43,714 nucleotides of DNA from a virus: the UHGV virus genome UHGV-0175557, one strand, 5' to 3'. The notes below the pieces were generated by a model. The model was given only the letters and a program-made list of their open reading frames with translations, did not search any database and was not told where the DNA came from. The position numbers and the translations under genes were made by a program. Below, one piece after another: positions 16,277-17,035 of the stretch. Each line of letters starts with the position of its first letter. Within the stretch, counting starts at the first letter, position 1.

Positions 16277-17035
16277 ATGATGTTTGAACAACCGTGGAAC
16301 ATACCTGCATATGATGCTGAAAGTGAAAAACAATCACTTGACTATCGAATGAAAACACAACAAGTAGACTGGAGTGAAGCGCCAGACTGGGCTACATGTG
16401 TTGTTCTTAATAAGACAACAAACACTTTTGCATGGTCTGACGGTTCAATGTACGCACCAATTTTAAGAAATCCGCCACAAATTATGGACAATGCTGATGA
16501 CTTTGAAATCTTTGAAAAACGCCCTTGTGGTCCAGCAACATCTGTCAAAACAAAACTGTTAATGACACCGAAAGCCCGTGGTAATACTTACGAAGAATTC
16601 ATTGCGACCGGGTGGAATGACGACCAGTTAGTCGAACATGGTTATGCTGTTCGTATTACAGACAAACGTTCCTGGTCACCAATGACCGTCGGAACTGAAA
16701 CAATTACACCACCTTCAAACTGTCGGTGCACATTCACCCCCGTTCAACAACCATCAACAGCGTCTGATTTACTGAAACAGGCTGAACAGCTACTGACAGA
16801 ACGTGGTAAGCAGTATGACACGTCTGGTCAGGAACGTTCGTCAGCTAAAATCGTTGCTGCGTTTAACACAATTACCGGGCGTGACTTAACACCAGGTGAA
16901 GGGTGGTTGTTTTTGATGTTGTTAAAAGCGGTTCGTTTTTATTCCAACACTGAAACACCACATCGTGACAGTCTGGAAGACCTGATCAGCTATGCTGCGT
17001 TACACGCAGAGGAATATCTTAACGATGAACGGTGA
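16277..17035 (+). CDS. hypothetical protein (252 aa) carrying motif GNTYEEFIATGWNDDQLVEHGYAV shared with the window-end ORF
   Basis: ATG 16277 with GAGGAA upstream; motif compared by eye with GATYEQFIAQGWNDEQLIANGYMV at 43489..43714. Confidence 0.55.
   Translation: MMFEQPWNIPAYDAESEKQSLDYRMKTQQVDWSEAPDWATCVVLNKTTNTFAWSDGSMYAPILRNPPQIMDNADDFEIFEKRPCGPATSVKTKLLMTPKARGNTYEEFIATGWNDDQLVEHGYAVRITDKRSWSPMTVGTETITPPSNCRCTFTPVQQPSTASDLLKQAEQLLTERGKQYDTSGQERSSAKIVAAFNTITGRDLTPGEGWLFLMLLKAVRFYSNTETPHRDSLEDLISYAALHAEEYLNDER

Follow-up and report, generated by a model that had tools for sequence, protein, structure and literature searches.

A small protein module occurs twice in the virus genome UHGV-0175557, analysed here as a stretch of 43,714 nucleotides (the window), on two proteins that are otherwise unrelated. 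One is a 252-amino-acid (aa) protein with a DUF6378 domain, encoded at 16277-17035 on the plus strand; the other runs past the window end on the minus strand and is, as judged from its translation and from the model of an ortholog, the C-terminal end of an SSB, a protein that binds single-stranded DNA (ssDNA), of the T7 gp2.5 type. The shared residues belong to a predicted mini-domain of about 33 residues, which probably serves as a portable docking module for the replication and recombination machinery. The DNA around both features is 95-98% identical to that of Escherichia phages KarinMuster_Bas82 and AVIO78A and of other 9NA-like siphoviruses (Nonanavirus/Sashavirus group), and on this sequence evidence the window is assigned to a 9NA-like E. 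coli phage.

The original prediction described a 24-residue motif common to the two open reading frames (ORFs), with about 15 identical residues. The first copy (GNTYEEFIATGWNDDQLVEHGYAV) occupies residues 102-125 of the protein encoded by ORF 16277-17035, and the second (GATYEQFIAQGWNDEQLIANGYMV) lies in the minus-strand ORF that has its stop codon at 43489-43491 and is open at the window end (43714). They are identical at 16 of 24 positions and have a BLOSUM62 score of 95, the runner-up 24-mer in a six-frame translation of the window scoring 25. BLASTP widens the match to 34 residues (20 identical, 26 positive, E = 1e-10). The two proteins have no other region that can be aligned, all the remaining high-scoring segment pairs having E > 1, which bears out their description as otherwise unrelated. 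An independent profile hidden Markov model (HMM), constructed from 16 SSB-type modules with the 252-aa protein left out, finds this protein at 48.9 bits (E = 1.9e-14), and its next match in the window reaches 2.0 bits; the concern that a profile search might place the similarity at noise level is refuted by this difference. The segment is not of low complexity, and the positions that are invariant or almost so in the family (M, A, G, E, A, G, W, D, G) are all kept by both window copies. Given these values, similarity by chance or by low complexity is an extremely improbable explanation of the match.

An HMM scan finds only these two copies of the module in the window, and no additional copy was found in the KarinMuster loci scanned. 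At the DNA level, the copies are 63% identical and their third codon positions agree at only 14 of 34, which indicates that the similarity is ancient and that selection has preserved it at the protein level. The same low third-position agreement rules out that the copies arose by recent duplication or by gene conversion.

That the window-end protein is a phage SSB encoded on the minus strand, and that the module is very widespread, are results beyond the original prediction. The window contains the last 74 codons and the stop codon of the SSB gene (43489..43714, minus strand; translation; phrog_7011, E = 5.2e-11), and the minus-strand frame, read downwards from 43713, ends in PTPAAAPVKVMTEKAGGATYEQFIAQGWNDEQLIANGYMVMTTPAPNFLNGNGY before the stop codon. 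The full-length ortholog in KarinMuster, Bas82_0067, is a protein of 343 aa in which the N-terminal core is followed by roughly ten copies of PTPAAAPVAA and then by a last segment of about 47 residues. The SSB core lies outside the window, and its fold was tested on P0302, an ortholog with a short linker. The AlphaFold model of P0302 has a mean predicted local distance difference test (pLDDT) score of 90.4, and Foldseek matches it to 4jg2, 4klk, 5odj (Enc34 ORF6) and 1je5 (T7 gp2.5) with E values of 2e-8 to 8e-7 and probability 1.0. This model identifies the window-end protein as the C-terminus of a T7-gp2.5-type SSB/annealing protein, for which ssDNA binding and annealing are predicted.

The OB domain is connected to the module by a linker of the type (PTPAAAPVAA)n, encoded by a perfect 30-bp tandem repeat (43630..43714) that is cut by the window end; Tandem Repeats Finder reports a period of 30, 2.8 copies and a 100% match. 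Close relatives differ mainly in the copy number of this repeat, with SSB lengths of 261, 267, 297, 331 and 343 aa. The tether of the SSB module is hypervariable in length, by slippage of the 30-bp repeat. The module copy itself (VMTEKAGGATYEQFIAQGWNDEQLIANGYMVMTT; 43525..43626, minus strand; HMM 80.5 bits) is followed by the extreme C-terminal tip PAPNFLNGNGY (43492..43524, minus strand), which is conserved in SSB orthologs and which the 252-aa protein does not have. In the form TTPAP(N/G)FL(N/T)GNGY, this tip is kept in the SSBs of E. coli, Klebsiella and Salmonella phages and in half-module relatives (P0321-P0326). In the P0302 model the linker has a pLDDT of about 50 and the tip is disordered, the last 12 residues being below 52. 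The end of the window SSB is not an acidic unstructured tail but a Pro/Ala repeat linker, a module predicted to be folded and the PAPNFLNGNGY tip, with a net charge of only -3 over the last 40 residues; in Enc34 ORF6, 16 of the last 29 residues are acidic (PMC5686142). Nor does it have the bacterial SSB tip D-D-D-I/L-P-F, since it terminates in ...FLNGNGY.

The same strand-helix-helix-strand arrangement is predicted by AlphaFold from two independent alignments and in two protein contexts. The 252-aa protein has strands at residues 94-96 and 124-126 and helices at 105-110 and 115-120 (block pLDDT 80-83), and P0302 has strands at 215-218 and 246-249 and helices at 227-232 and 237-242 (block pLDDT 79-93). 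Linkers of low confidence flank both copies. In the 252-aa model, the module is the best-predicted part, residues 84-92 and 128-166 having pLDDT values below 50. On these models the shared 24 residues are the core of a mini-domain of about 33 residues, predicted to fold autonomously, in which a short strand, a helix, a Gly-Trp turn, a helix, a Gly-aromatic pair and a short strand follow each other. The two halves of the module show a weak internal duplication of 10 residues (TYEQFIAQGW and NDEQLIANGY, 5/10 identical). The mean net charge of the module is -1.4 (n = 521 instances), and since it is net acidic, DNA binding is an unlikely function for it.

The original prediction did not recognise the domain. 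Pfam-A, NCBIfam and PDB sequences, searched with both proteins and with the module profile, gave no significant match to the module, and literature searches found no description of it; PHROGs folds it into the SSB profile phrog_7011. Neither protein has a Pfam match to LysM. The module is like the beta-alpha-alpha-beta fold of LysM only in the order of its predicted secondary-structure elements.

The distribution of the module was established by an exhaustive HMM search over 1.84 billion proteins (50%-identity cluster representatives), which gave matches in 1042 clusters at E <= 1e-3 and in 278 at E <= 1e-10. The proteins of the best 150 matches carry one to four modules separated by Pro/Ala-rich spacers, and mostly end exactly with the module. 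When only carriers of 150 aa or more are counted (n = 111), phrog_7011 is matched by 86, the Pfam family Enc34_ssDNA-bd (formerly DUF2815) by 42, phrog_112 by 38 and DUF669 by four, and there are smaller numbers of matches to other SSB PHROGs; by these profile matches most carriers are SSBs, from at least four families. The module is present in 93 of 117 gp2.5-type SSB homologs, nearly always as the C-terminal end. The other 24 mostly have diverged versions of the module pattern, followed in two cases by a classical DDIPF tip. In P0211, P0236, P0183 and L057 the module lies within the linker and a separate ...DDLPF tip follows; because the two co-occur, the module is a separate element and not a replacement of this tip. 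Four annotated phages (Vibrio phage MZH0603, Yersinia phage fEV-1, Burkholderia phage BcepB1A and Stenotrophomonas phage B2) have unannotated T7-type SSBs with the module as their C-terminus. When 185,579 species-representative bacterial genomes were scanned with a strict consensus pattern at the DNA level, a single contig, from a metagenome-assembled genome, matched, and by this result the module is a phage invention without a host counterpart.

One carrier locus, L094 (2675-5619), lies on contig JBDKHE010000045.1 of a Verrucomicrobiota metagenome-assembled genome and has three consecutive ORFs, each ending in a module. Its second ORF carries a near-exact duplicate of the linker and module of the SSB, due either to a recent internal duplication or to a repeat-induced misassembly. 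The same ORF starts with a DFETYS motif, which is presumably similar to a 3'-5' exonuclease motif of polymerases.

The 252-aa protein (16277..17035, plus strand; ORF list and translation) is composed of an N-terminal domain, the module and a DUF6378 domain. Its orthologs are Bas82_0021 in KarinMuster and gp29 in 9NA, and its region is 95% identical to the KarinMuster DNA that contains Bas82_0021. The N-terminal domain (residues 18-91; 16328..16549, plus strand) matches phrog_32742 (E = 3.9e-27) and is modelled with a few beta strands at a pLDDT of around 63-73. The module copy, LMTPKARGNTYEEFIATGWNDDQLVEHGYAVRIT, covers residues 95-128 (16559..16660, plus strand) as delimited by BLASTP and scores 65.3 bits with the HMM. 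The DUF6378 domain (residues 165-245; 16769..17011, plus strand) exceeds the gathering threshold of Pfam PF19905 (31.3 versus 27.1 bits), and matches phrog_474 and phrog_9871 too. The AlphaFold model of the whole protein has a mean pLDDT of 53 and is poor outside the module. Foldseek with this model returned only noise (E > 1), no fold being assignable to DUF6378 or to the N-terminal domain, and DUF6378 has no PDB relative either by sequence or by the low-confidence model. The public annotations of the orthologs conflict, with 'hypothetical protein', 'nucleotide modification associated domain 1', 'nucleotide kinase' as well as 'phosphofructokinase' among them, and none of them is supported by the Pfam, NCBIfam or PDB searches made here. 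Phosphofructokinase, the label of phrog_474 and phrog_1167, was rejected for want of any phosphofructokinase match in Pfam or NCBIfam and of any PDB relative.

The listed homologs of the 252-aa protein (n = 120) all contain PF19905 and differ in the state of the module. About 60 have the full module, about 20 only its second half (e.g. MVTRVNDDQLVEHGYAVRTNDE) and about 35 none; in P0116 the module is located at the N-terminus instead. Present, half-deleted, absent or N-terminal within one family, the module behaves as a cassette. The 9NA protein gp29 (L009 806-1612) has a full copy of the module followed by a half-copy remnant, VTVTRVNDDRLTE, and decay is also seen in P0110-P0124 and similar proteins. 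When the window, KarinMuster and 9NA are compared, the stretch that links the module to DUF6378 is a mosaic.

Second carriers were surveyed in 80 IMG/VR loci retrieved with the module, the census spanning 10 kb either side of it. The original prediction was right to describe a small reused module, and several phages with a module-bearing SSB have the module on a second protein too. These carriers are an SF2 helicase with the module inserted between ResIII and Helicase_C (L048 9464-11299), a 130-aa protein composed of the module and a GapR DNA-binding domain (PF10073, E = 1.6e-30) and encoded directly after the module-bearing SSB (L060 9950-10339), a protein of the phrog_11133 type (L073 7282-8097) and a truncated ORF (L083). 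The complete fEV-1 genome has the module in its SSB and no other copy. The two window copies share 20 of 30 residues, and the orthologous copy pairs of other phages share 20-22 of 30. When the 402 distinct SSB modules are ranked by similarity to the module of a second carrier, that of its own phage's SSB is found at ranks 4 to 114.

A further non-SSB family (P0190, P0205, P0216, P0259, P0264 and L073) has one to three modules together with the conserved motif D..G.PWD.RIH ... G.FKKRRG, and in several members the C-terminus is acidic and ends in ...IKDW. Matches of this family are limited to phrog_11133 (P0264 and L073) and a weak match of the module region to phrog_7011 (P0216).

Downstream of the SSB gene, the window encodes a DNA polymerase (41253..43109, minus strand; phrog_1252, E = 3.7e-214) for which Pfam-A gives nothing at E < 1e-3. 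With the polymerases adjoining the module-SSBs of MZH0603 and fEV-1, which are labelled 'RNase H-like' and 'DNA polymerase B region' in their records, it shares 50-58% identity; with the BcepB1A polymerase the identity is 26%. A split between a family A enzyme in the window and family B enzymes in fEV-1 and BcepB1A was considered and rejected, as BLASTP unites the four polymerases in one homologous family. KarinMuster and four other annotated phages have the gene order DUF2800 PD-(D/E)XK nuclease, SSB, DNA polymerase, of which the window shows the polymerase side only. The IMG/VR census finds DUF2800 upstream in 57 of 57 T7-type module-SSB loci with enough upstream sequence, and the polymerase downstream is PolB-like in 29 loci and of family A in 32. 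A nuclease-SSB-polymerase cassette seems to be common to distant phages. The module-SSB loci of the DUF669 and phrog_862 types have neither that polymerase nor DUF2800 within 10 kb; nearby, one locus of the former type encodes a protein with an NrS-1-like primase-polymerase domain, and two of the latter encode a DnaB-like helicase.

The flexible acidic C-terminal tail of T7-type and bacterial SSBs recruits polymerase, helicase and other partners and tunes DNA binding (PMC5686142). In the SSBs studied here, the module sits at the place of this partner-binding tail of T7-type SSBs, behind a flexible linker. Shuffling has spread the domain to at least four SSB families and to several non-SSB proteins of DNA metabolism, and we regard a portable protein-protein docking module for the replication and recombination machinery, the simplest reading, as its probable role. 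Protein binding and its target are what we infer from the observed homology, modularity, predicted fold, position, distribution and genomic context.

The Pro/Ala repeat linker of hypervariable length tethers the module to the OB fold of the SSB, and the same domain has been grafted between disordered linkers into the DUF6378 protein 16277-17035. According to this reading, any carrier of the module would be brought to the replication and recombination machinery on SSB-coated ssDNA, either by one partner common to all carriers or by module-module binding. A common partner might be an enzyme of the phage, for instance its polymerase or the DUF2800 nuclease, or else a conserved protein of the host. 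The original prediction held that such reuse often marks a shared interaction partner, a host factor or the DNA polymerase being examples. The shared partner is a reasonable proposal and is strengthened by the C-terminal position in SSBs and by the recurrence on DNA-metabolism proteins, but the polymerase as a general partner is disfavoured by its division into PolB-like and family A enzymes. A partner not tied to one phage enzyme family is favoured by this independence of polymerase family, by the multivalency of SSBs and by the rule that a second carrier occurs together with a module-bearing SSB.

Several points weigh against the docking role. It is deduced only from the position and architecture of the module. 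In many DUF6378 orthologs the module is missing, wholly or by half, through loss, and its role in that family is therefore dispensable. The separate conserved tip PAPxFLxGNGY could be the true partner-binding peptide, in which case the module does something else. Finally, the predicted template modelling (pTM) score of the P0302 model, 0.70, is the value expected from the OB domain alone and is uninformative on docking.

How a docking module would work can be imagined in several ways. The modules might bind each other as homotypic 'stickers', a tentative proposal in which the SSB, with one to four modules on flexible spacers, is a multivalent scaffold on ssDNA, single-module proteins (the DUF6378 protein, the helicase and the GapR-like protein) are its clients and no third-party partner is required. 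It accounts for the observation that the only requirement of a client seems to be a module on the SSB of the same phage, for the one to four SSB copies with Pro/Ala spacers, and for the presence of the module alongside unrelated replisome types and at least four SSB families. It also accounts for the similarity ranking, in which the client module is within the top 1-28% of the 402 SSB modules for similarity to its own SSB (the window pair being 4th), a ranking equally explicable by shared ancestry. Most SSBs, that of the window included, have a single copy, and the complete fEV-1 genome has an SSB with the module and no client; self-association is itself hypothetical. Were it true, SSBs with one to four copies and Pro/Ala spacers might form a replication hub, possibly condensate-like, of which any one-copy protein becomes a client, though we would give this rather low odds. 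It is similarly doubtful that the module is a self-contained recruitment code, independent of the replisome, invented by phages and spread by domain shuffling.

An equally tentative alternative is that the module binds the phage enzyme encoded beside the SSB, either the DNA polymerase or the DUF2800 PD-(D/E)XK exonuclease, in the manner of Red-beta, whose C-terminal domain binds lambda Exo. The gene order of the window and of the four other annotated phages, and the constant presence of DUF2800 upstream of T7-type module-SSBs, agree with it, and a duf2800-gp2.5-polA gene module has been described for the gp2.5 family in general (PMC8093625). This last report also detracts from the argument, because a DUF2800-SSB pairing that is general to the gp2.5 family is not specific to the module. 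Moreover, the neighbouring polymerase belongs to different families, and module-SSBs of the DUF669 and phrog_862 types have neither enzyme within the 10 kb examined. The co-occurrence of the module with differing phage polymerases and helicases would be explained if it bound a conserved host protein (host SSB, the sliding clamp, DnaB or RecA). Phage annealing proteins use their C-terminal regions to contact host SSB, and the hosts of the annotated carrier phages are varied proteobacteria (Escherichia, Salmonella, Klebsiella, Proteus, Yersinia, Vibrio, Burkholderia and Stenotrophomonas). The near absence of the module from bacterial genomes is neutral in this respect and offers no lead, and a host partner is, in our estimation, slightly less probable than an adjacent phage enzyme. 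Least probable of these explanations is an intramolecular regulator: the module would bend back onto the cleft where the OB fold binds DNA, and would adjust either the binding of ssDNA or SSB-SSB cooperativity. The module has the same position as the tails of T7 gp2.5 and Enc34 ORF6 and the SSB end is mildly acidic, as such a function would suggest. However, at least four different SSB cores carry the module, a separate acidic DDLPF tip can be present alongside it, and the pTM of the model gives no sign of docking. Because the module is also found on proteins without an OB fold (the DUF6378 protein, the SF2 helicase and the GapR-like protein), fold-back is unlikely as its general role.

The probable docking module can be compared with several known systems. 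Like the acidic tails of T7 gp2.5, Enc34 ORF6 and bacterial SSB (SSB-Ct, ...DDDIPF), it is C-terminal on an OB-fold SSB after a flexible segment, and the module-SSB is likewise mildly acidic and ends in an aromatic residue. The tails are disordered peptides, whereas the module is predicted to be a folded domain; it is reused on non-SSB proteins and sometimes coexists with a genuine DDLPF tip. The architecture is that of the C-terminal winged-helix domain of RPA32 in eukaryotic RPA, a small folded interaction domain carried by a flexible linker on an OB-fold ssDNA binder, which recruits repair and replication factors. The fold and lineage of RPA32C are unrelated to those of the module, and what its partners have is a short helical motif instead of a further copy of the domain. 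The C-terminal domain of lambda Red-beta binds its cognate exonuclease and host SSB, and the position of the module-SSB gene behind a DUF2800 exonuclease gene in all 57 loci is reminiscent of it. The Red-beta domain is a helical bundle (6m9k), whereas the module has a different secondary structure and its profile has no PDB match, including 6m9k. The exchange of small C-terminal domains between unrelated families of phage annealing proteins (single-strand annealing proteins, SSAPs) is documented (PMC8093625). Clamp-binding or PIP-box motifs follow the same logic of one portable tag on several replication proteins that meet at one hub, but they are short linear peptides whose target, a ring-shaped clamp, is known, and not a predicted folded domain. 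It was already known that SSBs have C-terminal interaction elements and that domains are shuffled among annealing proteins; what is new is a predicted folded strand-helix-helix-strand mini-domain that recurs, as a tag, on a helicase, a GapR-like protein and DUF6378 proteins.

The C-terminal ends of SSBs are hubs that organise replication, repair and recombination proteins, and their known versions are short, disordered and acidic. A large uncurated set of phage SSBs (the 1042 clusters) carries a predicted folded mini-domain instead. If this is a docking tag, it would represent a new recruitment code for phage replisomes, provide a handle on the working context of proteins such as DUF6378 and offer a portable 33-residue tag for tethering proteins at the phage replication fork. 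It would also bear on the portability of gp2.5-type annealing proteins in recombineering.

The 10-residue halves of the module are similar to other repeats. The same period pattern (hydrophobic, x, A, x, G, aromatic; AELKAAGFTA) is found in long arrays in the Pfam family PF25296 (Decapeptide repeat region) as well as in Legionella IcmE/DotG, with its repeats of 10 residues, whereas the module has only two units capped by two strands. Membership of the module in PF25296 is not supported: scores are 16.5-18.2 bits against a threshold of 45, and the window copies have no match. Weak decapeptide matches occur in 3 of the 111 carriers (best E = 1.9e-5), BcepB1A gp68 has E = 0.0024 and IcmE/DotG E = 3. 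The protein P0202 (2733 aa) contains many repeats of the type YTVEQVKELGFTTQQLIDGGY, similar to the halves of the module, with 21 stretches matched by the profile; they could be distantly related to the repeat unit, or the pattern could have arisen by convergence.

A small ORF is located between the polymerase and SSB genes of the window (43156-43437, minus strand); its listed length is 93 aa, or 84 aa when counted from the first Met. Pfam, PHROG and NCBIfam have no match for it. KarinMuster does not have it, and its polymerase-SSB gene gap is only 80 bp. The ORF is flanked by two identical hairpin-like copies of 21 nt, TAAATGGGGCACTATGGCCCC, at 43127-43147 and 43426-43446, 299 bp apart, and this arrangement has the look of a small insertion, a moron, by which the terminator was duplicated.

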